This document shows, one piece after another, positions 14,315 through 64,000 of a stretch of 64,000 nt of DNA. This DNA is from Nanobdellota archaeon (GTDB lineage: Archaea > Nanobdellota > Nanobdellia > Parvarchaeales > Parvarchaeaceae). The notes below the pieces were generated by a model that saw only the letters and a program-made list of their open reading frames with translations, was not told the origin of the DNA and did not search any database. Each line of letters begins with the position of its first letter. The stretch's first letter is position 1. The stretch is taken from NCBI GenBank assembly GCA_021800365.1, contig JAJYZA010000003.1:6182-70181 (forward strand). The letters run 5' to 3'. The translations under genes and the position numbers were made by a program.

Positions 14315-17300
14315 ATGCGATATAGCCGTAGATCACAATCCGCTTTAGAATATATAATGAGCTACAGCTGGGCCATACTAATAATAGTGATTGTTGCTGG
14401 AACGCTTTATTCTTTGGGTATTTTTACCCCGCAAAATTCTGCTGGCACGGGCATAACAGGTTTTAGCGACGTAAAGGTATTATCCGCCGTCATCTTATCT
14501 AATGAAATCGAACTGCAGATTGCGAACGAGGCACCAAATCCAATAGTAATAAATGCGATAAATGTAAGTGAAAACAATCAGTTATTTACAAACTTCAAGT
14601 GTGAATCATCAAGTCTATCTATAGGCGACAACACACTTTGTGCAGTATATGGTACATTTCCTTCCCCACGGGCGGCCACTTCAATAAATATCGGGTATAC
14701 CACGACCGGCGTGTTTGAGACCAGTTACATCTCTTCCGGTAGTGTATCTGCTAACATAGCGCCACTACTACTAAATAATCAACTGCCATCGCCCACTAAT
14801 ATTGCCTATGTCGGCAGCTGGTTCGGTACACTTACAGAAATAAACACAACATCTAACACGGTGATAGCTTCGTGGGGAAACCAGTTATGGGGACAGGGAG
14901 ATATATTTTACTCTGCGAATGGAAGTTTAGCATACATAGTCGATGGTTGGACTACAATGGGAATATACAAGACACCGGGTCTTCAACTTGTCAGAAAATA
15001 CTGGATAAATGGTTGTAATCACTACGGTACACTATCGCAGAACGGCGAATACCTGTTTAATACAGTAGATTGTGCGAATTATATAGATGTTACTAATCTC
15101 TCCGAAACAAGTAGTCTATTTGATTTTAAGACCATCACAGTCGGCAACGACCCAGAAAAAATCACGAATATTAATGGCATTTTGTACGTTTTAAATCGTG
15201 CTTCCAATTCTATATCTCTCGTCGGGGATTCGAATTTTACTAATTTTGCCACAATAAGCAACATAGGTATTTTAAATAGCGCCGAATACGACATGGCATA
15301 TGACAGTGCAAACAAAAATCTTTATATAGCAGATTATAACGTAGATAATAATAATCTTTCTATAATAAATACCACTTCAAGGAGCTATATTGGTGGCATA
15401 AACAGCATAGGGCTTAATCCGTGGTATGCAGCTCTCAGCGCGAACGGTAAATTGATGTATATCTCTGATTCTTATAGCAGCCAGGGAGGTAATTATGGTA
15501 AACTATCTATTTTAAATTTATCAAATGGCGTGGTTATTGCGAATGTAAGGACCGGCAATGAACCTATGGGGGTAGCCATAGATCCCTCAACTGGAAATAT
15601 CTGGGTATTAAATTACAACTCAAACAGCATAAGCATAATAAACCCAGTTTCCTATACTGTTACAGCTACGATAACAGGCTTTAACAATCCAGAAGACTTA
15701 ATTATAATAAACGGCTATGCGTATGTAACCAACTATGGCGGAAATACGGTATCCGTCGTATCAACGTCTACAAATTCAATAACGGCAACCATCTCCGTTG
15801 GCTCAAATCCGTTTAGAATAGCGGTTTCTCCAATTAATTCAAGCCAGGTATACGTAACAAACTACGGTTCAAACACCGTATCTGTAATAAATGCAAAAAC
15901 AAACGTCGCGACGACAATATCAAATATGCACAATTGTGCTAATCCGCAAGGCATAGCGTTTACTCCAAATGGCGAAGCAGCGTATATGGCGTGTTGGAAT
16001 AATTATGTTGAGGAAATAAACGCTACGACCAACTTATGGCAAGCGGAGATAAACAGCTTGGGAGAGATACAGGGTAGCAGTTGGACGCCGATAGCGGTTT
16101 CTCCGGACGGTAAGTATGTTTATACAGGACTACAGTATGCCCCCGGACAGATGGATGTGATAGCCACTTCGAATAACTCCATTGTCAAGCGTATAGCAAC
16201 GCCAGTCGACATGTCATATCTTTTGTTCTCTTCTGATGGGTCTATACTATATGCACTGTATTATTGGGAACAAAGCGTTAATTTAGTAGAGTACAATTCA
16301 AATTCTTTAAACATAATCGGCCAAGTCGGCTCATTTTATAGCCCATATCAGATTTCGATTTCGCCTAATAACGAATATCTTGGAGTCTCTGATGCGGCAA
16401 GTCAAGAAGCTAGTATTGTGAATATATCTTCTGGGGCAGTCTATAGTTTTTCTATGAAATGGGGAAATACATGGGGAGTTGCCTTTTCGCCAGATAGCAA
16501 ATTTGCTTATTTCTCTTCTGGTGCGTTTGTTGTCAGGCTTTCATTGTTAAATTATTCACTTAAGACCATATTTACTGGGCAGTGTGCTGGACCGCTTTCA
16601 GTAAGCCCGGATGGAAATTTTCTGTACGAGCTTTTAACTTGTGGCGGAAGCGCTTATTCTGTGCCACAAAGCGGTGTCGTAACCATATCATTAAACCCAT
16701 TTGAGGTAGTTAACTACACCTACCCAGTAGGCATGACAATAAATGGGCTCGCAACGACACCAGATGGATCTAGATTGTTGATATCTAATCACGATGGGAC
16801 CGCATTCTCTGTTATGAATACACTAACTGGCCATATAATCTATTCTACATTGGAGCCTTTTCCTCCTCAGAACTCTTGGGATGTGGTTGATAATGGAAAC
16901 ATAGCATACGTAGCAATGGAAGATTCAGACTATGGAACTCTAAACAGTAGCGGAGGAATAAGTATAATAAATATCTCTTCTGGTAGTATAATCGGGGCGA
17001 TAAATGGGATAGGAGAATATACAACCAGTCTGGCAATATCGCCCGATGGCCAAACTCTATATTCATTATCAAGATTTCCGATGGGGACTGATAACAGTTC
17101 TTATTCCGCGGAGATAAATGTAATTTCCACTGTAACGGATTCGATTACAAATCATATTAAGGTGCCTGGTTGCCCCCTTGCAATGAGGCTTATGCCAAAT
17201 GGAAACACCTTAGTATACCCTGACCCATGTTCAAATAAAGTATTTTTCTTAAGCTTACAGAACGATTCTATTTATGCTCGCATACCAGTTGCATGTGGCG

Positions 17301-17614
17301 CGCAGAACATAGGTGTTACGCCAAACGGAAATTTTTTGGTGGTTTCTGACGCCTGTGGTTATGCTTCTATAATAAATGTCTCTTCCATGACAGACATATA
17401 CGACATAAGTGGCTTGAACAATCCACAGGATGTTTTTATATCCTCTGGTGGAAAGGAAGCATATTTTGCAGATTGGAATGACAACTTGGTGCATGTGCTC
17501 AATATTACAAAAGCCGAGCAAAAAAATGCAAATCCATGGATAACTACGATACCTATGCCAGCCGAATATCTCAGGGTAATAGTAGCCGGTAACGGGGCAT
17601 ATTCAGATTGGTAA
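14315..17614 (+). CDS. Class III signal-peptide (pilin-like) giant YVTN beta-propeller surface protein
   Basis: RRS/QSALEY plus hydrophobic helix; many YVTN-type repeats (AYVTNYGGNTVSVV, VYVTNYGSNTVSVI); many N-x-S/T sequons. Confidence 0.85.
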   Translation: MRYSRRSQSALEYIMSYSWAILIIVIVAGTLYSLGIFTPQNSAGTGITGFSDVKVLSAVILSNEIELQIANEAPNPIVINAINVSENNQLFTNFKCESSSLSIGDNTLCAVYGTFPSPRAATSINIGYTTTGVFETSYISSGSVSANIAPLLLNNQLPSPTNIAYVGSWFGTLTEINTTSNTVIASWGNQLWGQGDIFYSANGSLAYIVDGWTTMGIYKTPGLQLVRKYWINGCNHYGTLSQNGEYLFNTVDCANYIDVTNLSETSSLFDFKTITVGNDPEKITNINGILYVLNRASNSISLVGDSNFTNFATISNIGILNSAEYDMAYDSANKNLYIADYNVDNNNLSIINTTSRSYIGGINSIGLNPWYAALSANGKLMYISDSYSSQGGNYGKLSILNLSNGVVIANVRTGNEPMGVAIDPSTGNIWVLNYNSNSISIINPVSYTVTATITGFNNPEDLIIINGYAYVTNYGGNTVSVVSTSTNSITATISVGSNPFRIAVSPINSSQVYVTNYGSNTVSVINAKTNVATTISNMHNCANPQGIAFTPNGEAAYMACWNNYVEEINATTNLWQAEINSLGEIQGSSWTPIAVSPDGKYVYTGLQYAPGQMDVIATSNNSIVKRIATPVDMSYLLFSSDGSILYALYYWEQSVNLVEYNSNSLNIIGQVGSFYSPYQISISPNNEYLGVSDAASQEASIVNISSGAVYSFSMKWGNTWGVAFSPDSKFAYFSSGAFVVRLSLLNYSLKTIFTGQCAGPLSVSPDGNFLYELLTCGGSAYSVPQSGVVTISLNPFEVVNYTYPVGMTINGLATTPDGSRLLISNHDGTAFSVMNTLTGHIIYSTLEPFPPQNSWDVVDNGNIAYVAMEDSDYGTLNSSGGISIINISSGSIIGAINGIGEYTTSLAISPDGQTLYSLSRFPMGTDNSSYSAEINVISTVTDSITNHIKVPGCPLAMRLMPNGNTLVYPDPCSNKVFFLSLQNDSIYARIPVACGAQNIGVTPNGNFLVVSDACGYASIINVSSMTDIYDISGLNNPQDVFISSGGKEAYFADWNDNLVHVLNITKAEQKNANPWITTIPMPAEYLRVIVAGNGAYSDW

Positions 17615-17620
17615 AATGAT

Positions 17621-18592
17621 ATGGATATAAAACTTAGAGATAGACTTAGCCTTTTTCTTCTTAGGCGCGATGCTAGGAGTAGGTTGAGGCATGGTTCTGG
17701 CAGACGCAGCATCCATAAGACCTCATCGAGATTTATAGACCGAGTAAAATTATGGAGGTTTAGACATGAGATACGATTGATACTAAGCGGAAAGGCTCAG
17801 AAAGTTGAAGCGCGGATGGTAAAAGCCAAAAAGTCAAGTGCAATACCGGAAAGCATAGCGCAAGTTAGGAACCCCTCCTTTTTCAATTCAATGCGTAAGA
17901 CAATAGTAGAGAGAATAAGGCCGGCTCGTAATAAAAAATCAACTACTAATAGATTTAAAACCAACTTTCTAAAGTCCTGCTTTAAAGCGTTATTTTTACA
18001 TCACACTAATGAATCTACAAAGCAAGAATTTTCTCTTAATAAAAGCAAGTTGCCCGTAATCCCAAAGAAACTGCAGAAAATGGTATCATTAGCTACGGTT
18101 GCGATAATAATATTATTCTTAGCTTACAACACGGGGGTTTTTGTACACCTATATAATTCAATCAAGTCTTCTCTAGCACCTTCATCATCGCAGGCGACGC
18201 CTTCACCGCCAACACAGTCCATTCCAAACAATACCAACATTGATGTAAACTATATAACGATAGGTTTAAATTCTTCTGGGGGCGTAGCATCGTCTCTCAT
18301 AGCTACTCCGAGTATAAATGGTTTCAATGTTACGCCGGGAACTGTGCAGGCCATAAACCTGTCGCTTGCATTGTATAATGTATCGATTGTAGGCGGTACA
18401 TCTCCACCGGCGCCAGAAAATATTTCAGCTGTAGAATCCGGGACAAAATCGTTTAACGTGTCCATTAAATCGCCGGTTCTTCCAATAACTGTAAATGTAG
18501 GTAGTATTCGATATATCTATCTAGCTATCAAAACGCCTTCAATTCCGTATAAGGGGACGTTGAATATAATACTCGATGTAAAGGCAAGTTGA
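17621..18592 (+). CDS. Hypothetical single-pass membrane protein with basic N-terminus and extracellular beta-rich domain
   Basis: R/K-rich first ~150 aa, TM LATVAIIILFLAY, P/S/T linker, beta-strand-rich C-terminus; 6 nt after the propeller gene. Confidence 0.65.
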   Translation: MDIKLRDRLSLFLLRRDARSRLRHGSGRRSIHKTSSRFIDRVKLWRFRHEIRLILSGKAQKVEARMVKAKKSSAIPESIAQVRNPSFFNSMRKTIVERIRPARNKKSTTNRFKTNFLKSCFKALFLHHTNESTKQEFSLNKSKLPVIPKKLQKMVSLATVAIIILFLAYNTGVFVHLYNSIKSSLAPSSSQATPSPPTQSIPNNTNIDVNYITIGLNSSGGVASSLIATPSINGFNVTPGTVQAINLSLALYNVSIVGGTSPPAPENISAVESGTKSFNVSIKSPVLPITVNVGSIRYIYLAIKTPSIPYKGTLNIILDVKAS

Positions 18593-18667
18593 ACTCAATA
18601 TTAAATTAGTCCTTTTAAAAACATAAATGCGTCCTTAGTACTCTGCTAGCGTTTCAATGCTCGGGTA

Positions 18668-18674
18668 TTTAAAT
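18668..18674 (+). promoter_or_regulatory. Putative TATA box of tRNA-Thr
   Basis: TTTAAAT about 25-30 nt upstream of the tRNA 5' end. Confidence 0.5.
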
Positions 18675-18698
18675 CTATGGTAAATTTTATAATAATGC

Positions 18699-18770
18699 GC
18701 CTCGGTGGCTCAGTGGTAAAGCGTTTCCTTGGTAAGGAAAAGATCGCGAGTCCGATTCTCGCCCGAGGCT
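18699..18770 (+). tRNA. tRNA-Thr(GGT), no encoded CCA
   Basis: Acceptor GCCTCGG/CCGAGGC, anticodon arm TTTCC-TTGGTAA-GGAAA, T arm GCGAG-TCCGATT-CTCGC. Confidence 0.9.
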
Positions 18771-19186
18771 TGTTATGCCAGCAGAGAGCAAAGTGCCAAA
18801 TAGATTCTAAACCTACTTATTCTATCTCGATAAACCTGCCAATTTTAGAATTGATTTTAAGTAAACTTTAGATCAAACTGGAAAAATTCCGGCGAAATGA
18901 GCAGGTTTTTAGATTTCGGATCTAAGTACGACTAGGGCAACTTAAGAAATTTTAATCTAGATGTTAGGTAATATCTTATAAAGCTCTCGTCTTGTAGAGG
19001 ACCGCATCGAATACTTTAGCAGATAAGATAAGTTTGTTGCTATTTAGATTTAATCCGATAATAAAAATAGAACAGAAATTTAAGTGATCGACTTTCATAG
19101 AATGCTTTTAATCAATTACTGCTTAGGTTTTATAGAGTTCATTGGCGTTTTTGCACATTGTGCTCTATCCTCATTGTGGTAAAATT

Positions 19187-20092: not shown

Positions 20093-20445
20093 ACAAGCAA
20101 AATGTCATCTAAGTCTTCTATACAGTATACGCCAGCGCTCTTTATCTTAGTTCCGTAAGAATGGTCTATTGGCGTAACTCCGGTAAAGTATGCGTCAAAG
20201 CCATGTAACCGTTTCTGGCCGGTTTTGTCGTTATCAAATAGGGGTATAATCTTTTTTGCAGCGCGCAGTGCAGATTCTAGGTCGCAATAACGCGAATGGG
20301 CCGCCTTTATTATATTTGTTTTTAGTATACCGAGTCGCATGAAGGCCTCAACGTCACGTTTTCCTTCAACAACAAATAGTGTACCCTTTTCTTCAGTAGA
20401 TAGTTCCCTAATTATATCCAGCAGCGCAGCCTTGTTAGGTATCAT
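20089..20445 (-). CDS. Stand-alone small Toprim-domain protein
   Basis: FVVEGKRDVEAF...IIPLFDNDKTG (Toprim E and DxD motifs). Confidence 0.85.
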   Translation of the reverse strand: MIPNKAALLDIIRELSTEEKGTLFVVEGKRDVEAFMRLGILKTNIIKAAHSRYCDLESALRAAKKIIPLFDNDKTGQKRLHGFDAYFTGVTPIDHSYGTKIKSAGVYCIEDLDDILLV

Positions 20446-31120: not shown

Positions 31121-31837
31121 TTAATACTCCGTCAATGTATCCAAGACTATTGACGCTGCGTTTTTGGCTCTTCTATGCATCTCATCTATGGATAAAAATT
31201 TCGCTTGTTCCATAATTTTATCTACTACGAGCAGTAAAGATGCCGTTCTGAACTTTCGAAGCCTTCCAAGCATGAATAAAGTTGCGCATTCCATTTCTAT
31301 GGCGACCATCTTCATTTTACTAGCCATTACTTCTTGGTGTCCCCCAAAGAAGGCATCAGTAGAAAAGACCGGTCCGGTTATATATTTTGCACCGCTTCTC
31401 TTCGTATTCTCAATAAGGTTAATGGTAAGTTTTTCATCTGGTTCGAATGCGTTTTTAGAATCGTTAATGCCAATATATTCCCCCATAGTTCCGCCGCCGG
31501 AAGAAAATGCAGAGTCAGGTATAACTAGGTCCCCATAATCCGTTTCTTTCATGCCGCCGCAAGTCCCGAGTCTTACAAAATTTTTTCCACCTAGAGCATG
31601 CAGCTCCTCAACTGCTATAGCGAGCGACGGCGCACCAATACCATGCGAAGCTAGAGTTATAGATTTATTCTTATATCTACCGGAGTATACTGTGTATCTA
31701 TACGTCCAAAGTAGCTTGGGGTTCTCTAATAATTTAGCTATCTCTATTATTCTTTCGGGGTCCCCACCTATAAGCACATTATCAGAAATGTCTCCTTTTT
31801 TAAGCTGGATGTGCACAGGGGTAAGTTCTTTTTCCAT
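31121..31837 (-). CDS. Purine/uridine nucleoside phosphorylase (PNP_UDP family)
   Basis: GGDPERI, SHGIGAPS, RLGTCG, STDAFF, IEMECA. Confidence 0.92.
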   Translation of the reverse strand: MEKELTPVHIQLKKGDISDNVLIGGDPERIIEIAKLLENPKLLWTYRYTVYSGRYKNKSITLASHGIGAPSLAIAVEELHALGGKNFVRLGTCGGMKETDYGDLVIPDSAFSSGGGTMGEYIGINDSKNAFEPDEKLTINLIENTKRSGAKYITGPVFSTDAFFGGHQEVMASKMKMVAIEMECATLFMLGRLRKFRTASLLLVVDKIMEQAKFLSIDEMHRRAKNAASIVLDTLTEY

Positions 31838-31891: not shown

Positions 31892-33535
31892 ATGGTTGTC
31901 TCAAAGAGAGCGCAATTTATAACGGAATATCTACTAGTAATCGGTATAGCTCTTGTGATCATCGTTGCTTTCACGTTGTACATTACTTTATACTATATAA
32001 GTTATTCCAACGCTTCCAATTCTAATCAGATATATACGGCGGCAGACTCGATAATTCAAGAAGCAAATTATATCTCATCGGAAGGGGTCGGGTCAAAGAT
32101 ATCATTTCCGGTTAATTTTCCAGTGCTCAGCGCAAGCAGTTCGCTGTTTTGCGGGTCCTCTTTTAAAATAACCTCCGATGGATACTCCTCCATAACAGAG
32201 GCGAATGCCGAGATAGAGGGCGTACTGCCGCTTAATGCAGGTAACTCCGTTCTATATGCTCGTTATAACGGTAGTAATTTAGTCCAGATAGGAGTCGACA
32301 GGCCGGTGGCATTTATAACATATAATTATGCCATTTCCGGCAAATACCTCATTTATAATATTTCTTTTTACAATCTCAGTTACTATCCAGCTAAAAATAC
32401 CGGTTTTAATATTAGTGTCCTATACCAAAATGGCACCAGCATAAATAGTACTGTCGGAAGCGCAGTTTCCGGCAAAGTGAACGGTGAAATTTATGTGAAA
32501 GCATTGCCAATACCAGTAATTATCGATATATTTGTGCCACAATACTCTTTGGTTTCTCCATCTTGCTTTCCCATCGGGATAACGGCTCTAACTAATATGA
32601 CAATAAATAATTCTCAGTCCTTAGCGACCATTAGCCCATTTCAGCAGATGGTAAACCTTTCATCCTCCTTTTACAGCAGTTATGCCAATTCAGCGCTTTC
32701 AAACGTAGAGTTCTTTTACGGTAACGGCACGATAATTCCCTCATGGCTTGAGAATTATAGTGCTTCTAATGCGATTTGGTGGCTTAAATTACTACACGGT
32801 ATAGGCGCCTCCTCTTCAATCACAATCTATATTGGTTTCGCCTCAACATCGACAGATTTGTTTAATACCAATAATATCGGGGAAAACCCCCTCCTCTCGC
32901 CAGTTTATGGTGAATATGACGATGGACCAAATGTTTTTACTTTCTATGATAATTTTGCCGGCACACATTTAAGTTATAAGTGGGGCGACAACACGATAAC
33001 TCTAACAAAATCAGGAGGTACGTTGATTATCAACAACAGCATGAGTTTTGAACGAGGTTCACAAGGTAATGCTATTCCTTTTCTTAAGTCGCAAACGACT
33101 GCATTTATCCCCAGCTCAGGCGTAATAGAAGCTTATGGTACTATACCGGCAGGCGCTTCCGGTAGTAGTTATTGTTATGCTGGTTTTGGCATAACCGAGG
33201 CTGCAAATATAAATGCAAACGCGTCTGTAGTTGGTACTTTCTGCGGAACTTATGGACTATTAACTGGTAGCATTGTATCTCAAAATAAAGTAGCGGGATT
33301 GACCGGCGGAAAGTTTCTTTGGCAGATATTTATACCTTCCACTACTCCGTCGATAATATATGCGTCACAGAATTATGGGCCTAAAATTTCTTCTTCTTTA
33401 GATATGCCAAAATTACCGCAAGTCATCACTTTTTTTGATCAGAATGGTACTAATATTAATCTCGGACCATTTTACTGGGTCAGAACTCGTGCTTATCCTC
33501 CAAACGGAGTAATGCCGACAGTCACGGTCGTTTAA
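31892..33535 (+). CDS. Class III signal-peptide protein with DUF2341 domain
   Basis: KRA/QFITEYLLVIG; PFQQMVN...NGTIIPSWLE...WWLKL...IGENP..YGEYDDG; C-terminal YWVRTRAYPPNGVMP; ATG at 31892. Confidence 0.8.
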   Translation: MVVSKRAQFITEYLLVIGIALVIIVAFTLYITLYYISYSNASNSNQIYTAADSIIQEANYISSEGVGSKISFPVNFPVLSASSSLFCGSSFKITSDGYSSITEANAEIEGVLPLNAGNSVLYARYNGSNLVQIGVDRPVAFITYNYAISGKYLIYNISFYNLSYYPAKNTGFNISVLYQNGTSINSTVGSAVSGKVNGEIYVKALPIPVIIDIFVPQYSLVSPSCFPIGITALTNMTINNSQSLATISPFQQMVNLSSSFYSSYANSALSNVEFFYGNGTIIPSWLENYSASNAIWWLKLLHGIGASSSITIYIGFASTSTDLFNTNNIGENPLLSPVYGEYDDGPNVFTFYDNFAGTHLSYKWGDNTITLTKSGGTLIINNSMSFERGSQGNAIPFLKSQTTAFIPSSGVIEAYGTIPAGASGSSYCYAGFGITEAANINANASVVGTFCGTYGLLTGSIVSQNKVAGLTGGKFLWQIFIPSTTPSIIYASQNYGPKISSSLDMPKLPQVITFFDQNGTNINLGPFYWVRTRAYPPNGVMPTVTVV

Positions 33536-42273: not shown

Positions 42274-42894
42274 ATGTCAGGGAAACTGATAGTTCTTGAG
42301 GGCATAGACGGCGCAGGTAAATCTACGCTTACAAAAGCATTAACAGAATATCTAAAAAAAACAGGAAGAAAGGTACGTACACTAATATACCCAGATAGAT
42401 CATATATTTACGGAAAGATAATAGACGATTTTTTGCACTCAAAAATTAATCTAAGTGTAGAGGAGCAGTTTCTTTTGTATCTTACTGATATGGTAAAGGA
42501 TAAGATCAAAATCTCTAATGCGATCGCTGACGGCGAAATAGTAATTTTAGATCGATATTTCTTTTCGACGATAGCCTATCAGTGCTCAAATGGATTAGAT
42601 TATGAACGTTCTAAAAACTTCGTAGAATTATTGTCTTTGAACAGATCTTTCGGCGTTTTCTACATAGATATTCCAATCGAACTATCGCTCCAGAGAAAAC
42701 AGAAACAAAAAAGCTTAACCGGTGTCGATAGGTTTGAGGCGAATAAATCATTGTTGCAGAGCGTAAAGGTATTTTATGAACGACTTTTCAGTGAACGTGC
42801 GTTTGCAGATAATTGGGTCAAAATAGACGGCTCAAAGAGCCAAGAAGAAGTTTCTAAAGAACTTATAGATGCTGCTAATAAGCTCGGGATATGA
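42274..42894 (+). CDS. tmk: Thymidylate kinase (canonical P-loop)
   Basis: EGIDGAGKST, LDRYFFSTIAYQ. Confidence 0.92.
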   Translation: MSGKLIVLEGIDGAGKSTLTKALTEYLKKTGRKVRTLIYPDRSYIYGKIIDDFLHSKINLSVEEQFLLYLTDMVKDKIKISNAIADGEIVILDRYFFSTIAYQCSNGLDYERSKNFVELLSLNRSFGVFYIDIPIELSLQRKQKQKSLTGVDRFEANKSLLQSVKVFYERLFSERAFADNWVKIDGSKSQEEVSKELIDAANKLGI

Positions 42895-43496
42895 AAGGAA
42901 AATTTATAGTTTTGGAAGGACTGGACGGTGCAGGGATTGCGACACAGGCAACTCTATTGGCCCATCGTCTTAAAAATGCCGGATTTTCTGTCTTATTGAC
43001 AAAAGAGCCGACTAACGGTTTAATAGGCGGCATTTCCAAAGCTGCTCTTAGGGGCGAATTTAAAATCTCGCCGCGTACATTACAGCTACTGTTCTGTGCT
43101 GATCGTGCACATCATCTAGAAAAAGAAATAGAACCTGCGCTTGCAAGGGGTAAATTTGTAATCTGCGATAGATATCTCTTTTCTACTCTCTCATATGGCT
43201 ATGCTTCAAATGTGAATTACAAATGGCTAAGATACATAAATCTAAATTTTAGATTACCAGACATAGGCATACTATTAGATGTTAAACCAAACGTCTCTAT
43301 GGTAAGAGTCTCTGATGCTGAGGATGGCCTGCAACTGTTTGAAGATAGAGAGAAATTAAATCGGGTTAGGCAGGCGTATCTTAATATAGCTAAAGAATTT
43401 CACTTAAAAAAGATAGATGGGGACAGTAAAATAGATGATGTATCAGATAAGGTCTATAACCTAATAAATAAGGGCTTAGGTGGCCATCAAAAATAA
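42891..43496 (+). CDS. Thymidylate kinase paralogue with degenerate Walker A
   Basis: EGLDGAGIATQ (Lys16 to Ile), KEPT, ADR, CDRYLFSTLSYG. Confidence 0.85.
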   Translation: MKGKFIVLEGLDGAGIATQATLLAHRLKNAGFSVLLTKEPTNGLIGGISKAALRGEFKISPRTLQLLFCADRAHHLEKEIEPALARGKFVICDRYLFSTLSYGYASNVNYKWLRYINLNFRLPDIGILLDVKPNVSMVRVSDAEDGLQLFEDREKLNRVRQAYLNIAKEFHLKKIDGDSKIDDVSDKVYNLINKGLGGHQK

Positions 43497-43501
43497 TTTG
43501 C

Positions 43502-45805
43502 ATGAAAAGACATTATAGAATATCGAGGGGCCAAGTGGCTTTAGAATATTTAATAATAATCGGACTAGCATTAACGATACTTACTGGTTTTCTTATAATG
43601 ACTTTTTATTATGCGTCTGGTTATAACTCAGCCGAGAGTGGTCAGGGCGTGGTCTTAGCAGTCAATACAATAAGTAACGCGGTTGATTCATTGGCATCGG
43701 CGCAGTTAGGTTCTGCCTACGGTTTTTCGTTTGTGTCCTCGGGTTTTGATCAATTGGCTTCTTATTTCTGTGCCAATTATATAACATTGTCTTCATCCGG
43801 ATATCAGGCCGCCGCTACTGTAAATTTGCCGGTGTATGGTGAAATCCCGCTTAACCCAGGACAATATTCAGGGAGGGCGCTTTTAACCAATATAAACGGC
43901 GAGCAGGAGGTACAAATAAGTTTCAATCTCTTAATAGCAACAATAAATACGACTTATGTGTTAAACGGATCTGCATTATTATATAATATATCTTTTTTAT
44001 CCCAGTCAAATACGTTAGTAAATAACGTAAATTTTGAATTAAAAGTATATACTTTAACAAATACTTTTATTGCTGCACAAAATGAAACCGCAGTAAGTGG
44101 AAAATTCAGCGGCCATGTAAATATAAATCACGCATATCCCAACTTAAAAATAATGGTGTTAGTGCCTTCTTATGGGGTAGCTAACACAGAATGCATAGGG
44201 AGCAGTGCGCAAGCACGGCTCAGCATAATAAATTTTCAGTCTTCAGCGACTCCTTCTCCGTTTCAACAGACGGTCACTATAAATTCCTCAGAGTTTTCAA
44301 AGTACGAATCTACTAATTTGCAGAATGTGCAATTCTCTTATCCTAACGGTACAGTAATCCCGTCTTGGTTGGAATCTTCCAACCTCGCAAGTTTTAATAC
44401 GCCGCTTCAGTCACCATTCGCATGGATAAACGTAAGCAATAGCTCATTACTTAAGCCGACTAGCGCGCTTACAGTGAGTGGCTGGGCAAATTTAAGGAAT
44501 TTAAGTGACGTTGGGGGTGTCCTCCCATTGGCTTTATTTTCTAATGAGTGGGCCAATAGAACTAGCGGCATAATGGCATATATAAAAAATGGCGAATTAT
44601 ACTTCTTTGCAAATCTTTCCTCTTCAGGTCGAGTCAATATCAGCACTAACATCTCGACTCTTGGAATAACCGTAAATCAGTGGTTTAATTATGTTGCGAC
44701 TTATTCGGCTGCTACGGGTAAATTTATGCTTTATATAAATGGAGAGCCGGAAGCTACGAAAACGGTACCAACGAGTCAATCGATAGTATACGTGCCGAGT
44801 TCAAAATTTATTATTGGAGCATTCCTACCTGGAGCCGGCTGTATTTTATTGTGTTTAGATTTCATTTTTAACGGTAGCATGGCAAACTTACAGATGTATT
44901 CCTCAGCATTGGCTTCCTCTCAGATCTCTGCGCTTTATTCTGAAGGGATGGGGGGTCAGCCCGTTTCAACCGCCTCTCTTTTAGCCTGGTGGCCGCTTTC
45001 TGGAAATGCCAACGATTTGAGCGGAAATGGCAATTCGGGGATACCTATCGACGTGGTATTCTCTGCCGTTGGATCAGGCAGCACCGGCACAAGATATTGG
45101 TTAAGACTCGGAAGCCTTCCTGCAGACTCTACGACTGAAATATTGATGGACTTCTATCCAACTGATTTTAACGTTTTCAATAATAAAATAACCGGTGAAG
45201 CTCCTCAGCTTTCCTCCACATACGGCAAATATGATAACGGCGTTAATATATTCAATTACTATACTAATTTTTCTGGAACGAGTCTGCCGAGTGGATGGAC
45301 TACAAGCAGTAGCCTGACTGCCACTGTGAGTAATGGCGTAAAACTGGCCAGTTCAGCAGGGAGTCAATATTTAGGATACAATACCGCCGTAAATTCTCCT
45401 TTTGTATTCGAAATCTATGGAAAGGTAACGACAGCAACAACAGTAGATGAATCGAACCTATTGGCGATTGTCAGCAGCTCTCTTGGTGGTGCCACTGATT
45501 GGGCAGGGGAAGCATATTCTTCCGGGGATGTCTTTGGTTACGGTATAGCAGGCAATTGGATCACAACATCGACAAGCTGGAGCATAGGTACTTTTTACCT
45601 GAACGGAGTGGGATTGACGTCTTCGGGGGTTTCCGATTATGTCAATTACAATTTATTAGGCAGTTCCACATCTTCTGGCGGATTATCGAGTGCATATTTA
45701 GAAATATGGCAGGACAATTCAACGACATTCGTCCAGTGGCTCCGCACCCGGGCTTATCCTCCAAACGGTGTAATGCCATATGTTATAGTTGGTGGAGTAC
45801 AGTGA
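43502..45805 (+). CDS. Class III signal-peptide protein with DUF2341 interrupted by a LamG/concanavalin-like domain
   Basis: SRG/QVALEYLIIIG; LTVSGW...WFNYVATY..LYING...FNGSMANLQMYSSAL...WWPLSGNAND; WLRTRAYPPNGVMP. Confidence 0.82.
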   Translation: MKRHYRISRGQVALEYLIIIGLALTILTGFLIMTFYYASGYNSAESGQGVVLAVNTISNAVDSLASAQLGSAYGFSFVSSGFDQLASYFCANYITLSSSGYQAAATVNLPVYGEIPLNPGQYSGRALLTNINGEQEVQISFNLLIATINTTYVLNGSALLYNISFLSQSNTLVNNVNFELKVYTLTNTFIAAQNETAVSGKFSGHVNINHAYPNLKIMVLVPSYGVANTECIGSSAQARLSIINFQSSATPSPFQQTVTINSSEFSKYESTNLQNVQFSYPNGTVIPSWLESSNLASFNTPLQSPFAWINVSNSSLLKPTSALTVSGWANLRNLSDVGGVLPLALFSNEWANRTSGIMAYIKNGELYFFANLSSSGRVNISTNISTLGITVNQWFNYVATYSAATGKFMLYINGEPEATKTVPTSQSIVYVPSSKFIIGAFLPGAGCILLCLDFIFNGSMANLQMYSSALASSQISALYSEGMGGQPVSTASLLAWWPLSGNANDLSGNGNSGIPIDVVFSAVGSGSTGTRYWLRLGSLPADSTTEILMDFYPTDFNVFNNKITGEAPQLSSTYGKYDNGVNIFNYYTNFSGTSLPSGWTTSSSLTATVSNGVKLASSAGSQYLGYNTAVNSPFVFEIYGKVTTATTVDESNLLAIVSSSLGGATDWAGEAYSSGDVFGYGIAGNWITTSTSWSIGTFYLNGVGLTSSGVSDYVNYNLLGSSTSSGGLSSAYLEIWQDNSTTFVQWLRTRAYPPNGVMPYVIVGGVQ

Positions 45806-57379: not shown

Positions 57380-57380
57380 T

Positions 57381-58100: not shown

Positions 58101-58120
58101 AAGTCCAGCGTATCGTAACA

Positions 58121-59287
58121 CTAGAAATTGTTAAGATTGGTTTGTTTTTCTATATTTGATAAAACTATCGATTTCTTTTCGATATTTATTGGATAAAATA
58201 ACGCTTCTTTTGCATTTCTGATGGCGAGTTCTTGGCTGCCAAAATAATTTAATTCTCCAGACAGCACTCTTCTCGCGCCTTCTCTAACTACCCATACGCC
58301 AAGCGGCGCAAAATATTCAGGTGTTATCTCCCTTATAACAATCACAGAGAACTGTTTCTTCATAGATTTTAGTTTCTCTAGAATAGCCAGGCGTATTGCA
58401 TAATAAGCACCAGCGGTGTTTTTTACATACTTACTTCTTCCACCGTAAAATTCGTGGTCTCCGGCTCCGCTAAAGATATTCTTTCCATCGCGGTTCCACG
58501 TTTCCAATAATTCAAACGACCACATACCTGGAATAAATATAAATACGTAATGGTTTCCTAATACGGTTCCGGTCTTTATTGCACAGCCGTCGCCTTTGGG
58601 ATATGATTTGACTTCTTCTAGCAGGCCTTTTCCTATTACATCGTCTACAGCAGTTATAGCCCACTTTGTGGGCACGATTCTTCTCTTTATCCCGATGGCG
58701 CCCACGCTAAGTGCTTTGCTTATTCTATTGTCATCGATAGAATTGTTATAAAGATATATCATACCGTCTGTCGCCTTTAAGTCTCTATCATAATATACTT
58801 TTTCAAGATTTTTATTCAATCTAATATTTTCTACTAGTTTTAATCCAGATAGCTCCGCCGTAAAACCGTGCGGTGTTAGGTCTTTTGATACCAAAGGACT
58901 GTCATGTATGTGTAATAATCTTAAATCTATAGCCAGCTCGTTTTCTGAGAGTGTCGCTAGCGTGACATTATGCATATATTTATTATCTGGTTTTCTTATG
59001 TCTACGTTATTTTTTGCATTTATGAGTGTAGATCTCAACAAAAAAATCTTTGAAACATCAAACCCAGTTTTTATCCAGAACTTTGGTGCATCATAAATAG
59101 CTGCATTTTGATCCGTTGTAAATATTACTCCTACAGAAACGCGAGGATAATTAAATTCACCTATCAACGTAGATGGTGGAGTGAATCCGCCTATATTTCC
59201 CGTCTTCGCTAAGTTAATTATTCTACTTAGTGTTCTTTTGTTCTTTTTTATTTCTTTATAAACCGACTTTATAGGTATTATTCTCAT
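58121..59287 (-). CDS. nre: Nre-family DNA repair protein with C-terminal PIP box
   Basis: PPS..IG..NYP.V, RRIVPTKWAITAVDD, LGNHY, GAYYA.RL, Y.APLGVWVVRE, QTNLNNF; ATG at 59287. Confidence 0.88.
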   Translation of the reverse strand: MRIIPIKSVYKEIKKNKRTLSRIINLAKTGNIGGFTPPSTLIGEFNYPRVSVGVIFTTDQNAAIYDAPKFWIKTGFDVSKIFLLRSTLINAKNNVDIRKPDNKYMHNVTLATLSENELAIDLRLLHIHDSPLVSKDLTPHGFTAELSGLKLVENIRLNKNLEKVYYDRDLKATDGMIYLYNNSIDDNRISKALSVGAIGIKRRIVPTKWAITAVDDVIGKGLLEEVKSYPKGDGCAIKTGTVLGNHYVFIFIPGMWSFELLETWNRDGKNIFSGAGDHEFYGGRSKYVKNTAGAYYAIRLAILEKLKSMKKQFSVIVIREITPEYFAPLGVWVVREGARRVLSGELNYFGSQELAIRNAKEALFYPINIEKKSIVLSNIEKQTNLNNF

Positions 59288-59288
59288 A

Positions 59289-59465
59289 TCATAATATCCC
59301 ACGTTTAATCAATAATTCTTTTTTTATTTGGCGACGATACTTTGCAATTTCTTCATCTCTCGAATACTTCTGTGGCGCATTTATTATAGTATCAGAATCG
59401 CAAATCTGGCAGGTTTCCTTCAAGGAATACTTTTCGCATTTTTGACAAAATCGTATTTTTTTCAT
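59289..59465 (-). CDS. nop10: Nop10 (58 aa; below the ORF-track cutoff)
   Basis: MKKIRFCQKCEKYSLKETCQICDSDTIINAPQKYSRDEEIAKYRR...; ATGA overlap with aIF2alpha, canonical order. Confidence 0.9.
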   Translation of the reverse strand: MKKIRFCQKCEKYSLKETCQICDSDTIINAPQKYSRDEEIAKYRRQIKKELLIKRGIL

Positions 59466-60196
59466 TCTTTTATTTCCTTATAAGTAAATTCTATACCGAG
59501 TTTTTTACTTTCAGCTTCTAATCCTTCTAGTATCTTTTTATTTTCGCTCAGGGTTTTCTTAGTATCCGAAGCATTTACGCTTAGAAGATAGTGTGGTGCC
59601 TTGATGTACTTTATCGAATAATCTTTATCATTTGTATAATTTTTAATTAGCAGATTTTTAATGCTTTCAACGCCATCTTCATTGAATGCTCGGATGAACA
59701 AATCCGTTTTTATTGTTATTCTTTTTTTAGTTTTTTCTACGAAATCGAGCAGTTCTTCTATGGCAGTTTTGCTTAACTCCATGTTCTTCAATGTAGGTTT
59801 TCCATTTCTTAAAACCGCACTATAAAAATCATATAAAGATCCATACTCGTCTTTAATTTTTTTGATTAGTTCCTGCGCCCCTTTCCCGGCGATCTTTTCT
59901 ATTATCTTTTCCGTCCTAGTGCTTATAGACCATTCCTTTAGTGCCTGCTTCTTTTCATTATCCGTGACCCGTTTCGCAGACAATTCTATCGACTGCGGTT
60001 CGAGTTTTATTAATTTACAAACTATTCTTTCCCCTTGCCTAGCAACATCTTTTACGTTTTTTACCCATCTCTTACTTAATTCCGAGATATGTACAAAACC
60101 TTCCTTGTCAGAATCATCTATGCCAACAATTATTCCATGCTGCAGAAGTTTTCGTACATCGCAGATGTAAATCGCCCCTACAGTTAATTTTATCAT
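59462..60196 (-). CDS. eif2a: Translation initiation factor 2 alpha subunit
   Basis: S1 domain EGFVHISELSKRWVKN, IELSAKRV, YIKAPHY. Confidence 0.92.
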   Translation of the reverse strand: MIKLTVGAIYICDVRKLLQHGIIVGIDDSDKEGFVHISELSKRWVKNVKDVARQGERIVCKLIKLEPQSIELSAKRVTDNEKKQALKEWSISTRTEKIIEKIAGKGAQELIKKIKDEYGSLYDFYSAVLRNGKPTLKNMELSKTAIEELLDFVEKTKKRITIKTDLFIRAFNEDGVESIKNLLIKNYTNDKDYSIKYIKAPHYLLSVNASDTKKTLSENKKILEGLEAESKKLGIEFTYKEIKE

Positions 60197-60278
60197 CTCA
60201 TTTATGCGCCGTTTCTTATATATATCTATTGTGGCTTACGAGTTTAAAATATTAATACTCCAATTAGTTATTTAGTGC

Positions 60279-60596
60279 ATGGTTGAACATCTAGATTCAG
60301 AAAACTTCAATAGCACAATAACTAATTCTAACATAGCAATCGTAGATTTTTGGGCGGACTGGTGCATGCCTTGTAAACAGCTATCTAATATACTGGAAGA
60401 ATTTGAAATTAAATTAGGCGCAGAATCGAAACTATTCAAAGTAAACGTTGACAAAAATCCTGCTCTCGTCGGTCAGTACGGTATAGAAAGTATCCCCACA
60501 ATAATAATCTTTAAGAATGGAAGTCCTATAAGCTCTATAATAGGACTACAGTCAAAAAACGAAATCGAAAAAGCAATTTTCTCTGCAATCAGCTAA
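60279..60596 (+). CDS. trxA: Thioredoxin
   Basis: VDFWADWCMPC, SIPT. Confidence 0.93.
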   Translation: MVEHLDSENFNSTITNSNIAIVDFWADWCMPCKQLSNILEEFEIKLGAESKLFKVNVDKNPALVGQYGIESIPTIIIFKNGSPISSIIGLQSKNEIEKAIFSAIS

Positions 60597-60598
60597 AA

Positions 60599-61117
60599 AT
60601 GGAAGGCGCTACAATATTTAAAAATAGCATGGTAGTTTTCGATCAGGCTCTTGCTTCGAGACTATTTAATAAAGGATACTTCGGTTCTTTTTTAGATGGA
60701 AAACTTGAACTTTCGCTCGAGGAGGCATTATACTTAAAAGAAAAGAAGGGACTTAAGTTGCTTAATGAACGCGGAAGGATATTATCTACACAAAGTTTCA
60801 TGCGTATTGCAGAACGCATACAAAAACGATTTTCGATAAGATATCGCGTCTTTAAAGACATGAGAGATGGGGGTTATATATTAAAGACAGCCTTTAAATA
60901 CGGTGGAGACTTTAGAGTTTACAATAAGGGTGACACCCCGGGAAAAGCCCATGCAATGTGGATATTGTATGCAGCCGATGAGCATGAGTCGATGCGTTTC
61001 CTTTCATTTGCGGCGATGAGCAGGGTAGTGCACAGCGTTAAGAAAAAACTGCTTATAGGTATTGTAGACGATGAAGGCTCAGTGACTTATTATGAGATGA
61101 GGTGGATGAAGTTGTGA
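60599..61117 (+). CDS. endA: tRNA splicing endonuclease, single-unit (alpha4-type size)
   Basis: LSLEEALYL, catalytic Tyr (FKYGGDFRVY), His (KAH) and Lys (VKKKLL). Confidence 0.93.
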   Translation: MEGATIFKNSMVVFDQALASRLFNKGYFGSFLDGKLELSLEEALYLKEKKGLKLLNERGRILSTQSFMRIAERIQKRFSIRYRVFKDMRDGGYILKTAFKYGGDFRVYNKGDTPGKAHAMWILYAADEHESMRFLSFAAMSRVVHSVKKKLLIGIVDDEGSVTYYEMRWMKL

Positions 61118-61122
61118 TTTTT

Positions 61123-61236
61123 ATGGCAAAATTGGCGTTTAAGCATCGCGCGAAAAAAAGAAAGGAGAGATCGAAAGTAAATTCAGATAAAACTAAATTT
61201 AGTAAAATCCTTAGAGGTTATCTTATCAAGAATTAA
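61123..61236 (+). CDS. Putative 37-aa basic small protein
   Basis: MAKLAFKHRAKKRKERSKVNSDKTKFSKILRGYLIKN; starts 5 nt after endA, and its stop overlaps the convergent gene's stop. Confidence 0.35.
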   Translation: MAKLAFKHRAKKRKERSKVNSDKTKFSKILRGYLIKN

Positions 61237-61811
61237 TCAGAGAATGAAACCCGGAGCTTACCTACCCAATTTAGTCCGTCAATTTCTCTCGATCGCACAA
61301 CTACAAAGAGAGTAGTGCCTTGACTCTTGCTTTTCTGACCAGCCCAGCCTATCTTGAATTTAAAACGATTAACGCCGCCACTATCAACAATGGCTTCAGA
61401 TGTAAAATTGTTGAAATAAGCCCCTTCAATCTTATTGAATACTACTGGTAGAAAATTGTCCCTGTCCTCAACCGTGACCTCGAGGACAATAGGCACGTCG
61501 AATCTATTAATTATCTCTATGCTTACGTTCTCGCTTCCTCCGTTCAATAGATTTATGGAATCTGGGGCTATTTTAACATCCAGTCTTGATGCTAACGCTT
61601 CCGAAAGCGCCTCTAAAGCATTCTTTATTTTAAGGCCGTAGCTTTGTTTTACCAATAAGGCATTTATTTCTCGCAAAAGTGAATTTGTTTTTATCTCACT
61701 GAGTCTAAGCAGGGAATAAACGCTGTTCGCACCATCTTCTCCTATTGTTTTCTTTAAAGAGTCAATAATGATACGCTGTAAAATCTTACTGTCAGCAATC
61801 GTCAAGTCCAT
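61233..61811 (-). CDS. Hypothetical protein (helical N-terminus, beta-sandwich-like C-terminus)
   Basis: Clean 192-aa ORF; no recognised motif. Confidence 0.65.
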   Translation of the reverse strand: MDLTIADSKILQRIIIDSLKKTIGEDGANSVYSLLRLSEIKTNSLLREINALLVKQSYGLKIKNALEALSEALASRLDVKIAPDSINLLNGGSENVSIEIINRFDVPIVLEVTVEDRDNFLPVVFNKIEGAYFNNFTSEAIVDSGGVNRFKFKIGWAGQKSKSQGTTLFVVVRSREIDGLNWVGKLRVSFSD

Positions 61812-61922
61812 AGCTTATTTTATTTAGTATAATATTTAATGGTTTTTATTATTTAAGTGTGCAGTTTTGTAAGATCAAATGCCACATTTAAAGTTTAAAT
61901 TGCGCTAATGACATTTTAAAAT

Positions 61923-64000
61923 ATGCCAATCCCGCGTAATAATGGACATAAAAAACGAACTCAAGCAGCAACCGACTTTCTACTTAGTTGGGGCTGGGTA
62001 ATAGCGATAGTTGTAGTTGCAATAATAATAATCTTTGAGCTTGGCTTATTTCCCTCGTCAAAGAATGCAACTCTTATAAATGGCTTTCAAGGAGTTACAA
62101 TCTCTAATGTCGGGGTTAATAGCTCGCTTTTTGTGGTGCAGCTAAAGAATCAATTCGGCCAGCCAGTTAATATTAATAACGTCTCCGTAACGATAAATGG
62201 GCAAACGTATTATGCTTTTCAGTGCAGTACACAGTTAGTAGCTAATGGGGCGATTACGTTATGCAGAGTACCTGTCTCAATAAGCTCGTCAAATTATCAA
62301 TCTTCGGTCAGTATCAAATATGCGCCAGCTGGAGCGCCGGGAACAACGCTTTTTTCAAATGGGACTATATCTGGCTCCCAGTCCCCAGGAACCATTTCTT
62401 TAAACAATCTAAAATATTACTTTGTAGAATCGGGTTTGCCTAATGGATATAGTTGGGGAGTAAACTTGAACCAGTCCGCGGAGGCTACAAATACCTCTAC
62501 ATTAGTGTTCAGTGAACCTTTCGGCACCTATTCTTTCAATGTAAGTAACACTTCTGTGGCGGGCTGCGTAACACGGCTTGCGCCAATCAATGGAACTGTA
62601 TCCTCTGGTGTAACGGAACAGATAGTTTACAACTATAGTTGTACAACGGTATTTCATGAGAGGGGTTTAACTAATAATGACAGATGGAACGTTACATACG
62701 ATGGTGTCGAGAAATCAGCAGCAGGCAGTTCGTCTATAACATTTACAACGGGGGTCGGAACATATGCCTATAGCATCCCTTCTTACGAGGTCCCCGTAAC
62801 TTATCTTGTTACAACTAATCCGACAGTTGCCTCACCGGGTGCGATAGCGTATGACTCCGTAAATAGAAGCTTATACGTGCCATCTTCATCGGGTAATGGT
62901 ATAAGCGTGTTCAATGCGTCTAATGGTTACATCACATTGTCGATTAAGACTTCCTCATCCGGCGCTTATTACAGCCCCGTAGATAGTTACGTTTATATCT
63001 CAAATTCGTCTACAAATAAGGTTCTGTATGTTAGCACATTGACAAATACCTTAAAAGGCTCCATTTCGGTAGGTTCAAGTCCGGGCGCAATAATCGGCGG
63101 TGCAGTAATAGGTACTGAATATTCTGCTCTCGGAGGTGTACCAAACGGTGGACAAAACATATATATAGCGAATTATGGATCGAATACAGTTACAGTATTA
63201 AATAGCGGCTCTGTAGTCGCTACGATTACTTTGGGGGGTAGTTCGCCATCTGCATTGACTTTTGACCCTTCAAACAAGGAAATATATGTCGCCGAGAGCG
63301 GCGCTGTAACTGTGATAAATGATTCCTCACCAAAAGATATAAAGAACATAACAATCTCAGGTACTCTCGATGGGATAGTCTATGATCCAGTGAATGGAGA
63401 AGTTTATGTCTTAGACTCCACTACAAATTCTATTTCTGTTATAAACGCGACTACAAATGCGGTAATAACGACAATTCCTTCGTGCAGCACCCCGAATGAC
63501 ATAGCTATGGATACCGTTAACGATAACTTATATGTCGCTTGTGGGGTATCGAGTGGTTCAGATGTCAGTGTGATAAATGGCTCAGCAAACAAAAATATAC
63601 AGAACTTTTCATTTGGTACCGCATTTACAAAAGCCGCATATGATATAGGAAGTGGAGATCTTTATTTTGTTTCGAATACAGGCAATTCAATTTTGGATTT
63701 TGAGCCATGGGCAGTTAATACCCCCCGGGGTACATTAACAGCTGGGCAGAGCACAACGGTCTCATTTGCACCTTTATCCAGCAGCATATTTGTAACTCCC
63801 CCCTACAAACTTTACAATAATGGGCCGGCAGATTTTTCTCTTTGGTGGTTGAAATATGGTAACGTAAACTTAAGCCAAATGATAGGATCAAATATAGTGA
63901 TTGCCACCGCACCGGCAGCTTCAATGTCTTATAAAGGGGCCATGTATCCATACCAAAATGTAGGCACCTCGCAGCCAGAATTAGACTTCTGTAATATAAT
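61923..64000 (+). CDS. Class III signal-peptide surface protein with F.E.GL..W.V repeats and YVTN propeller, 3'-partial
   Basis: Own translation: MPIPRNNGHKKRT/QAATDFLLSWGWVIAI...; FVESGLPNGYSWGV, FHERGLTNNDRWNV, YIANYGSNTVTV; no stop before the window end; absent from the ORF track. Confidence 0.85.
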   Translation, partial: MPIPRNNGHKKRTQAATDFLLSWGWVIAIVVVAIIIIFELGLFPSSKNATLINGFQGVTISNVGVNSSLFVVQLKNQFGQPVNINNVSVTINGQTYYAFQCSTQLVANGAITLCRVPVSISSSNYQSSVSIKYAPAGAPGTTLFSNGTISGSQSPGTISLNNLKYYFVESGLPNGYSWGVNLNQSAEATNTSTLVFSEPFGTYSFNVSNTSVAGCVTRLAPINGTVSSGVTEQIVYNYSCTTVFHERGLTNNDRWNVTYDGVEKSAAGSSSITFTTGVGTYAYSIPSYEVPVTYLVTTNPTVASPGAIAYDSVNRSLYVPSSSGNGISVFNASNGYITLSIKTSSSGAYYSPVDSYVYISNSSTNKVLYVSTLTNTLKGSISVGSSPGAIIGGAVIGTEYSALGGVPNGGQNIYIANYGSNTVTVLNSGSVVATITLGGSSPSALTFDPSNKEIYVAESGAVTVINDSSPKDIKNITISGTLDGIVYDPVNGEVYVLDSTTNSISVINATTNAVITTIPSCSTPNDIAMDTVNDNLYVACGVSSGSDVSVINGSANKNIQNFSFGTAFTKAAYDIGSGDLYFVSNTGNSILDFEPWAVNTPRGTLTAGQSTTVSFAPLSSSIFVTPPYKLYNNGPADFSLWWLKYGNVNLSQMIGSNIVIATAPAASMSYKGAMYPYQNVGTSQPELDFCNI

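Follow-up and report, generated by a model that had tools for sequence, protein, structure and literature searches.

Modular pilins have an experimental foundation in bacteria, whereas their archaeal precedents are predictions only. The bacterial case is that of the S. sanguinis modular minor pilins PilC, which has an Ig-like and a ConA-like lectin domain, and PilB, which has a vWA domain (PMC9934059, PMC8179133). Considered here is a stretch of 64,000 nucleotides (the window) from contig JAJYZA010000003.1 of a Nanobdellota archaeon (assembly GCA_021800365.1; positions 6,182 to 70,181 of the forward strand). It contains four genes, named 14315, 31892, 43502, and 61923 after their start positions, which we regard with moderate confidence as members of an expanded archaeal family of modular type IV pilin-like proteins. 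The likeness to PilC lies in the order of parts, an N-terminal pilin module, then an Ig-like domain and, on a short linker, a lectin of ConA/LamG type; in both cases a functional module has apparently been grafted onto a pilin. The family differs from the S. sanguinis pair in being archaeal, in having Gln at position +1 and a head without sequence similarity to bacterial pilins, in numbering ~20 paralogues per genome rather than two, and in the clear recombinational exchange between its heads and the C-terminal modules they carry (the passengers); it is known from sequences and models.

Among Archaea, large DUF2341 proteins have been proposed as pilus adhesins by analogy with PilY1 (Makarova, 2016; PMC4858521); in the family described here, by contrast, the DUF2341 module is fused directly to a pilin head. 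Epd-like "system 1" machineries occur in methanogens and a few DPANN archaea (PMC13705601). With the Epd pili of Methanococcus maripaludis the family shares Gln +1 pilins, of the PF04021 type, and one ATPase with two separate platform genes, but, instead of forming a single 11-gene operon, its pilin-like genes are dispersed or grouped in islands. The Sulfolobus bindosome likewise combines a binding domain behind a class III signal with a PibD-type peptidase and a dedicated FlaI-like ATPase plus platform pair; here a lectin or propeller takes the place of the ABC-type solute-binding protein as cargo. "Ca. Mancarchaeum acidiphilum" Mia14 (Micrarchaeota) has an expanded jelly-roll LamG-like family, some members of which are associated with type IV pilus loci and located on genomic islands (PMC5498576). 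Both cases are LamG-like expansions in ARMAN-type DPANN archaea, and head-A proteins with LamG (see below) have homologues in many Micrarchaeota metagenome-assembled genomes (MAGs); the class III signal, pilin head, conserved 5' block, and cassette mosaicism are not described in the relevant passages of the Mia14 report, which concerns another phylum. The family is also unreported in Parvarchaeota genome papers, such as an analysis of a novel Parvarchaeota family that reported hardly any genes for cell-cell interaction, virB11 and TadC being the sole ones (PMC7779479).

What distinguishes the family is its scale, its homogenized 5' block, the mapped exchange of cassettes, and the gain of a passenger at an orthologous locus. 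To our knowledge, how ARMAN-type DPANN archaea recognize and hold their Thermoplasmatales hosts has not been established. The family, which is likely to be a host-contact toolkit, provides a large and concrete set of candidates for this contact (~4% of the genome, 2-25 copies per congener), with domain boundaries clear enough for expression, glycan-array, and antibody work; its cassette exchange offers a testable model of host-range evolution in genome-reduced symbionts, and it extends the bacterial modular-pilin idea to Archaea.

The window corresponds to C13:6182-70181 (C-numbers are contigs of this genome) in an assembly of 898 kb, 30 contigs, and 98% completeness. The genome size of 0.9 Mb and relatives named Parvarchaeota, ARMAN-4, and ARMAN-5 agree with the DPANN affiliation that an earlier reading of the window, made from the sequence alone (the sequence-only reading), had suggested. 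The four genes are as follows.

14315..17614, + strand: head-A modular pilin-like protein of 1099 amino acids (aa); YVTN match.
31892..33535, + strand: head-B modular pilin-like protein of 547 aa; AlphaFold2 (AF2) model, Foldseek matches, and a sub-threshold DUF2341 match.
43502..45805, + strand: head-B modular pilin-like protein of 767 aa; PF04021 match on the N-terminus, and synteny.
61923..64000, + strand: most divergent head-A protein, first 692 of 1104 aa; head homology and YVTN match.

The sequence-only reading had described these genes as giant adhesins with a class III signal, two kinds of shared head, and exchangeable passengers; at 547-1104 aa the products are large rather than giant. 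Class III-like N-termini are found on all four: a basic leader of 7-13 residues, Gln at +1, an acidic residue at +5, and a hydrophobic helix, with ~20-25 hydrophobic residues after the cleavage motif. With a slash at the predicted cleavage site, the motifs read RRS/QSALEY (14315), KRA/QFITEY (31892), SRG/QVALEY (43502), and KRT/QAATDF (61923). A short, positively charged leader that ends in a small residue and precedes a hydrophobic helix of ~20 residues characterizes archaeal type IV pilin-like proteins, those of Epd type having Gln at +1, and the four sequences conform to this; as the -1 residue of a class III site, however, the Thr of 61923 is atypical. The pattern [KR]-small-Gln-x3-[ED] is kept in both head types and in many homologues from other genomes. 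The Class_IIIsignal model PF04021 matches 43502 with 28.8 bits when the N-terminus is taken alone and with 23.4 bits, against a cut-off of 23.7, for the full protein.

The heads pair as had been proposed: 14315 and 61923 have homologous heads (head A; 30% identity over 155 aa, E 6e-14), and so do 31892 and 43502 (head B; 36% identity over 286 aa, E 3e-42). Sequence comparison detects no similarity between head A and head B. All four proteins are low in Lys and Arg, high in Ser, Thr, and Asn, and carry 1.8-2.9 N-glycosylation sequons per 100 aa against 0.61 in neighboring genes; composition and sequon density are of extracellular character.

AlphaFold modeling, which the sequence-only reading had proposed, shows an N-terminal helix, a beta head, and lectin-type modules in a head-A archetype and in 31892. 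The archetype model (55-sequence alignment; predicted local distance difference test score, pLDDT, 82.7) has an N-terminal helix (residues 14-37), which a linker of low confidence (41-47) connects to a beta sandwich (50-154); the LamG jelly roll (164-364) takes in the conserved strands of the C-terminal tail. Two cysteines of the sandwich, Cys63 and Cys118, are invariant or nearly so in the alignment. The Foldseek neighbors of the archetype model are pentraxins, LamG modules, and carbohydrate-binding proteins, with the S. sanguinis modular minor pilin PilC at rank 36 (7oa8, E 2.1e-4); no other pilin structure is among the 50 matches listed per model in these whole-chain searches, in which lectin domains dominate. 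In the 31892 model (pLDDT 73.6) the N-terminal helix is 55 residues long; beta domains follow up to residue 240, and after them come a DUF2341-like region and a ConA-like domain. The Foldseek neighbors of this model are of lectin type, including trans-sialidase lectin domains and Cip1. As modeled, both head A and head B would have a pilin-like fold, a helix followed by a beta-rich domain. An N-terminal pilin module joined to domains that are also found outside pilus biology is the arrangement by which Raynaud et al. (2021) define a modular pilin, and the family shows it.

The passengers fall into a few kinds. Some 12 genes, with products of 360-420 aa, carry Laminin_G_3, which scores as high as 65.5 bits in paralogues; DUF2341 with a ConA-like domain is found on C7, C23, C15, and C4 (up to 55.5 bits for DUF2341 in C23), the C4 gene having both LamG and DUF2341; and YVTN propellers are the passengers of the two head-A genes of the window. 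The tail motif W-W-P-L-D-G-N-x-N-D-Y-S-G-N (e.g., residues 325-366 of C3:27990-29090) resembles a strand motif that usually stands before LamG_3. It precedes LamG in C21:7697-8845, follows the domain in most members, and packs into the LamG domain of the AF2 model with pLDDT > 90, which suggests a circularly permuted flank of LamG.

A genome-wide scan finds head A in ~21 open reading frames (ORFs); the head of the 14315 protein alone matches 19 other ORFs (E 1e-9 to 1e-25), and together with the head-B genes the family comprises ~23 genes occupying 34.4 kb, or 3.8% of the genome. In ~14 members the first 41 residues are nearly identical, M[LP]QKAKPNRKS/QSALEYMMTYGWAILIIVIVAGVLYSLGIF. One of the head-A proteins stands alone: C15:138589-139071 encodes 160 aa with a helix nearly identical to the canonical one, which makes its product a candidate filament subunit. 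All 24 congeneric genomes have head A, in 2-25 copies, and other families of the class have 0-3 copies per genome; the one copy listed for one of these (G028) is a stand-alone ORF of ~150 aa. A search with the head-A profile returned 7039 representative proteins, 2187 of them at E <= 1e-10; the head is N-terminal in the best 150 of the 7039, and the matched proteins range from ~150 to 1517 aa, fragments aside. Homologues occur in Ca. Parvarchaeota, ARMAN-4, ARMAN-5, Acidifodinimicrobium, and many Micrarchaeota MAGs; their annotation goes no further than "LamG domain-containing" or "DUF2341 domain-containing" protein. Proteins with head A and LamG are found in Parvarchaeota and Micrarchaeota MAGs from acid mine drainage (loci L029, L033, L037, L050, and others). 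These are different DPANN phyla, reportedly associated with Thermoplasmatales, and the shared proteins could reflect common ancestry or gene transfer.

The sequence-only reading placed the genes among housekeeping operons. This is so for the four in the window and not for the bulk of the family: most members lie outside the window, grouped in island-like clusters whose other genes include those for AAA_14/DUF4143 ATPases, for an AbiEii toxin, and for a nucleotidyltransferase/HEPN pair. At C3:25206-35461 six head-A genes form a 10-kb array that reaches the contig end; interspersed among them are a gene for an AbiEii toxin, a headless piece of LamG, and a nucleotidyltransferase/HEPN pair. Short contigs C11, C7, and C23 are among several that start or end in family genes; because the assembly has probably been broken by family repeats, the true copy number may exceed the count.

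Heads and passengers have demonstrably recombined, as judged from alignments of four segments across eleven LamG-type paralogues (C13z is C13:1340-2470, just upstream of the window):

Leader and helix: 89-100% identity among ten canonical members; ~50% for the eleventh, C13z.
Head beta domain: 91-99% identity among C21a, C3c, C3e, and C26a; 29-56% in other pairs.
LamG core: 24-40% identity between paralogues, excepting C3e/C13z; 32-34% among the four that share a head.
LamG core of C3e against C13z: 89% identity, with heads only 39% identical.

The head/passenger breakpoints, mapped here at the DNA level, fall where blocks of high identity start or stop at codons 145-162, the junction that follows an EPGQ-x-LSGPY-x-S-x-G motif, and a conserved tail, ...WWPLDGNANDYSGNNNNGVATNVSWVSP, provides homology on the 3' side. 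At the other end of the genes, identity among 12 paralogues at the fourfold-degenerate sites of codons 1-41 is 78.6%, where chance would give 25.8%, and the 50 nt upstream of family genes, TTTAAAT box included, are 92% identical; these values point to concerted evolution of the 5' block and not merely to constraint on the protein. Headless passenger fragments lie at C3:32221-32673, C11:4271-4519, C7:15178-15423, and C23:11967-12407. Diversification by a diversity-generating retroelement is ruled out in a genome that has no reverse transcriptase (no RVT_1 match).

The AAA_14 + DUF4143 ATPase genes of the islands (~420-440 aa) touch this 5' block. Three of four end in VPLWKWLLNL (C23:10566-11834, C11:2644-3909, and C11:65-1396), and two of these three lie directly upstream of head-A genes, C11:65-1396 being at a contig end with its downstream region unassembled. 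The ATPase stop codon lies inside the TTTAAAT promoter box of the pilin gene. Remnants of the ATPase end, 48-68 codons long, are found at four further family genes (C3:24975-25178, C3:27795-27962, C3:35047-35190, and C26:14639-14791), and the duplicated unit therefore seems to be the ATPase 3' end, promoter, and head.

Exchange of passengers, real elsewhere in the genome, is weak among the four window genes to which it had originally been attributed: YVTN propellers are found on both members of the head-A pair, and the two head-B genes have one and the same DUF2341/ConA-like part. The propellers, reported as different arrays, do carry YVTN repeats in both proteins (TIGR02276, 103.7 bits in 14315 and 70.3 bits in 61923; NCBIfam cut-off 27.85) and are homologous to each other. 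The DUF2341 assignment of 31892 and 43502 is sub-threshold in the former (PF10102, 21.7 bits against a cut-off of 23.4) and has no direct match in the latter; it is backed by homologues, since both proteins align over this region with PF10102-carrying proteins and the paralogues C23 and C15b pass the cut-off.

At the 31892 locus a change of passenger is recorded when congeners are compared. The 31892 protein comprises, approximately, a leader (MVVSKRA), a helix at residues 10-64, a beta head at 69-240 (~31892-32611), a DUF2341-like region at 250-317, and a ConA-like jelly roll at 349-534; its start is that of database protein P0125, the longest frame opening at GTG 31811. In six congeners the locus holds a head-only ORF of 231-284 aa that matches residues 1-226. 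In two of the six this ORF lies divergent beside a homologue of 31121-31837 and near tfb, as in the window, and in the other four tfb is close to it. No DUF2341 part was found within the 7-9 kb examined around the locus in the six congeners. Gene order and alignment thus identify the locus as a case of passenger gain or loss on a fixed head.

Gene 43502 is a positionally stable syntenic orthologue. The order tmk-tmk-adhesin-pyruvate kinase is retained in four congeners, a fifth, at a contig end, showing the tmk side only; flanking genes are 46-77% and the adhesin 34-44% identical. Its approximate layout is a leader (MKRHYRISRG), a head to ~residue 245 (43502-44236), a DUF2341-like region interrupted by a LamG-like insert at ~residues 293-525 (44378-45076), and a ConA-like C-terminal domain ending in RAYPPNGVMP; the C-terminal ~250 aa are also common to 31892 and 43502. 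By alignment, 43502 is essentially 31892 with a LamG-like insert inside the DUF2341 region, its passenger not swapped. The insert is at the identical site in four proteins of the head-B homologue alignment, which includes other genomes, and other congeners have the 43502-type head on ORFs of 940-1231 aa. The two thymidylate-kinase-like paralogues directly upstream of 43502 (42274-43496) are tandem, overlapping, and ~32% identical, and the pair is kept in congeners.

The genome has machinery that could assemble a filament. The prepilin peptidase and pilus ATPase whose absence would have spoken against pili are both present: a single Peptidase_A24 gene (C4:2999-3841, 41.8 bits), two FlaI/PilB-type ATPases, and platform proteins. 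A T2SSE ATPase and two separate T2SSF platform genes lie at C21:22680-26143, and a second, longer ATPase with a weak T2SSF neighbor is at C26:8139-10382 (T2SSE 128.6 and 72.9 bits; T2SSF 52.8 and 38.9 bits). No archaellin gene was found in the genome, which rules out an archaellum as the user of the ATPases. Because one ATPase and two platform genes occur together with Gln +1 signals, the gene content suggests a machinery of the Epd-like "system 1" type.

Beside the A24 peptidase, C4:4582-10236 holds five consecutive genes for proteins of 300-492 aa. At least four of the five products have an N-terminal hydrophobic helix, preceded in three by a K/R-small-residue motif, and these products are possible additional substrates or accessory components of the filament system. 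Further small proteins (112-227 aa), whose class III-like N-termini make them candidate pilins, major or minor, are encoded at C26:24713-25051 (MRG/QGLPI), C28:50484-50840 (RKA/QGLPI), C15:147433-147882 (QRG/QATLEL), and C15:139182-139865 (MRS/QFSIEF). One of these genes is directly upstream of a head-A gene and another adjoins that of the stand-alone head-A pilin. This 227-aa neighbor was considered as a head-B protein and rejected, the match covering only the N-terminal helix (hhalign probability 42%).

These parts suggest the following mechanism. A class III signal, with its short basic leader, small residue at -1, Gln at +1, and acidic residue at +5, would be cleaved by the single A24 prepilin peptidase. 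The freed helix and an Ig-like beta head, A or B, would constitute a pilin module that enters the type IV filament of an Epd-like (system 1-type) machine with one ATPase and two platform proteins; the C-terminal LamG, DUF2341/ConA-like, or YVTN passenger would face outward and bind glycans or proteins, with likely targets on the host cell or on surfaces. Variety in the repertoire would arise as genes recombine at the head/passenger junction and at the conserved 3' tail, and the shared 5' block of promoter, leader, and helix would be held nearly uniform among paralogues. What the sequences and models show is a modular architecture, homologous heads, a genome that encodes the machinery, genes of mosaic make-up, and a passenger gained at a fixed locus; signal cleavage, incorporation into a filament and position within it, the ligand, and the host are what we infer.

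Several observations weigh against such a filament. PF04021 does not match 14315, 31892, 61923, or canonical head A, and the usual residue at -1 in the family is Ser, or Thr in 61923, where we take Gly or Ala to be canonical from PibD/FlaK specificity. No pilin gene lies beside the pilus ATPase locus, so that no genetic link ties the family proteins to the pilus machine. The head-A helix is short (~24 residues) and is followed by a flexible, low-confidence linker before the head; a sequence search of the PDB with the head-A profile gave only chance matches (E >= 0.2). An exclusive position at the pilus tip, where the sequence-only reading had placed the adhesins, is itself unlikely because there are ~20 bulky subunits.

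The main rival explanation draws on some of the same features. The signal could be cleaved and the proteins displayed, as in a bindosome, either anchored in the membrane or in a short pseudopilus, forming a coat that captures glycans or nutrients. There is archaeal precedent in the Sulfolobus sugar-binding proteins with class III signals, type IV filament machineries functionalized for substrate binding are treated in PMC13705601, and a coat would accommodate many bulky paralogues, with their flexible linker behind a short helix, more readily than a tip would. The ATPases match the bindosome BasE model at E 1.6e-39, albeit at 136 bits against a cut-off of 1000. Neither substrate-binding-protein nor ABC-transporter domains are fused to the heads, however, and no solute-binding domain was found; the near-invariant helix is common to the stand-alone 160-aa pilin-like protein, which fits co-polymerization, and ARMAN cells have been imaged with pili-like connections (Comolli work, as cited in PMC5498576). 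On balance a coat of this kind is rather unlikely.

Less probable still is an N-terminal hydrophobic segment that serves as an uncleaved type II membrane anchor unrelated to type IV filaments. The failure of most N-termini against the Pfam class III model, the non-canonical Ser or Thr at -1, and the distance of family genes from the pilus ATPase loci would be expected of such an anchor; a plain anchor would, however, have no need of the [KR]-small-Gln-x3-[ED] pattern, which is conserved in head A, head B, and homologues of other genomes, nor does it explain a helix that is 89-100% identical across paralogues otherwise diverged to ~30%. That the ConA-like, DUF2341, and propeller modules are glycan-degrading or lactonase-type catalysts acting on the host envelope is very improbable: glucanases are among the ConA-like folds, Foldseek returned trans-sialidase lectin domains and Cip1, and the propellers weakly match lactonase, arylesterase, and NHL models, but the structural matches fall on non-catalytic lectin parts, the only catalytic families above cut-off are Lactonase (32.5 against 21.7 bits), Arylesterase (30.6 against 21.3), and, marginally, YNCE (27.6 against 27.1), the first two without a matched stretch of their own, and the hypervariable LamG cores resemble binding modules.

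If the modular pilin-like reading is taken further, the family might be an archaeal contingency system for host recognition, a view that we put forward only tentatively. The ~20 expression-ready genes, with one homogenized 5' block and a conserved 3' tail, would undergo gene conversion among themselves and with headless LamG/DUF2341 fragments, which would re-pair heads and cassettes. Cells or strains of an obligate symbiont would then show different adhesin sets and could track or switch hosts, and the system would be functionally analogous to pilE/pilS or var-type repertoires. We know of no pilE/pilS- or var-like system of this kind described in Archaea.

In 61923, which continues beyond the window end, the leader ends in KKRT, with Gln at +1 and Asp at +5, and the head extends to ~residue 163 (61923-62411); short beta modules with the motif F-x-E-S-G-L-P-x-G-x-x-W follow, together with YVTN repeats. 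At least six such modules, in which the motif can be extended to F-x-E-S-G-L-P-x-G-x-x-W-x-V, occur in the protein (window 62400-62830 and the contig beyond); they have no Pfam family and no PDB sequence match. The approximate layout of 14315 is a leader (MRYSRRS, 14315-14335) with predicted cleavage before Gln8, a hydrophobic helix at 14336-14425, a beta-sandwich head at ~14426-14779, and then ~940 aa of YVTN beta-propeller repeats. Full-length orthologues with 39-42% identity are present in three of 25 congeneric genomes, and a homologue search with residues 1-170 returned only the protein itself and one relative. Downstream of 14315 lies a partner gene:

17621..18592, + strand: downstream partner gene of 14315; residues 149-320 conserved.

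Residues 149-320 of its product are 27-34% identical to proteins encoded directly 3' of the 14315 orthologues in three congeners, and the product has no Pfam match. The true start is probably Met154 (~18080), which would give a protein of ~170 aa with one membrane helix and a beta-rich domain. The database copy of the 14315 protein (P0246, 1085 aa) starts at Met15, so that the leader and cleavage motif (window 14315-14357) are lost; automated gene calls may hide the class III signal in the head-A/head-B family.

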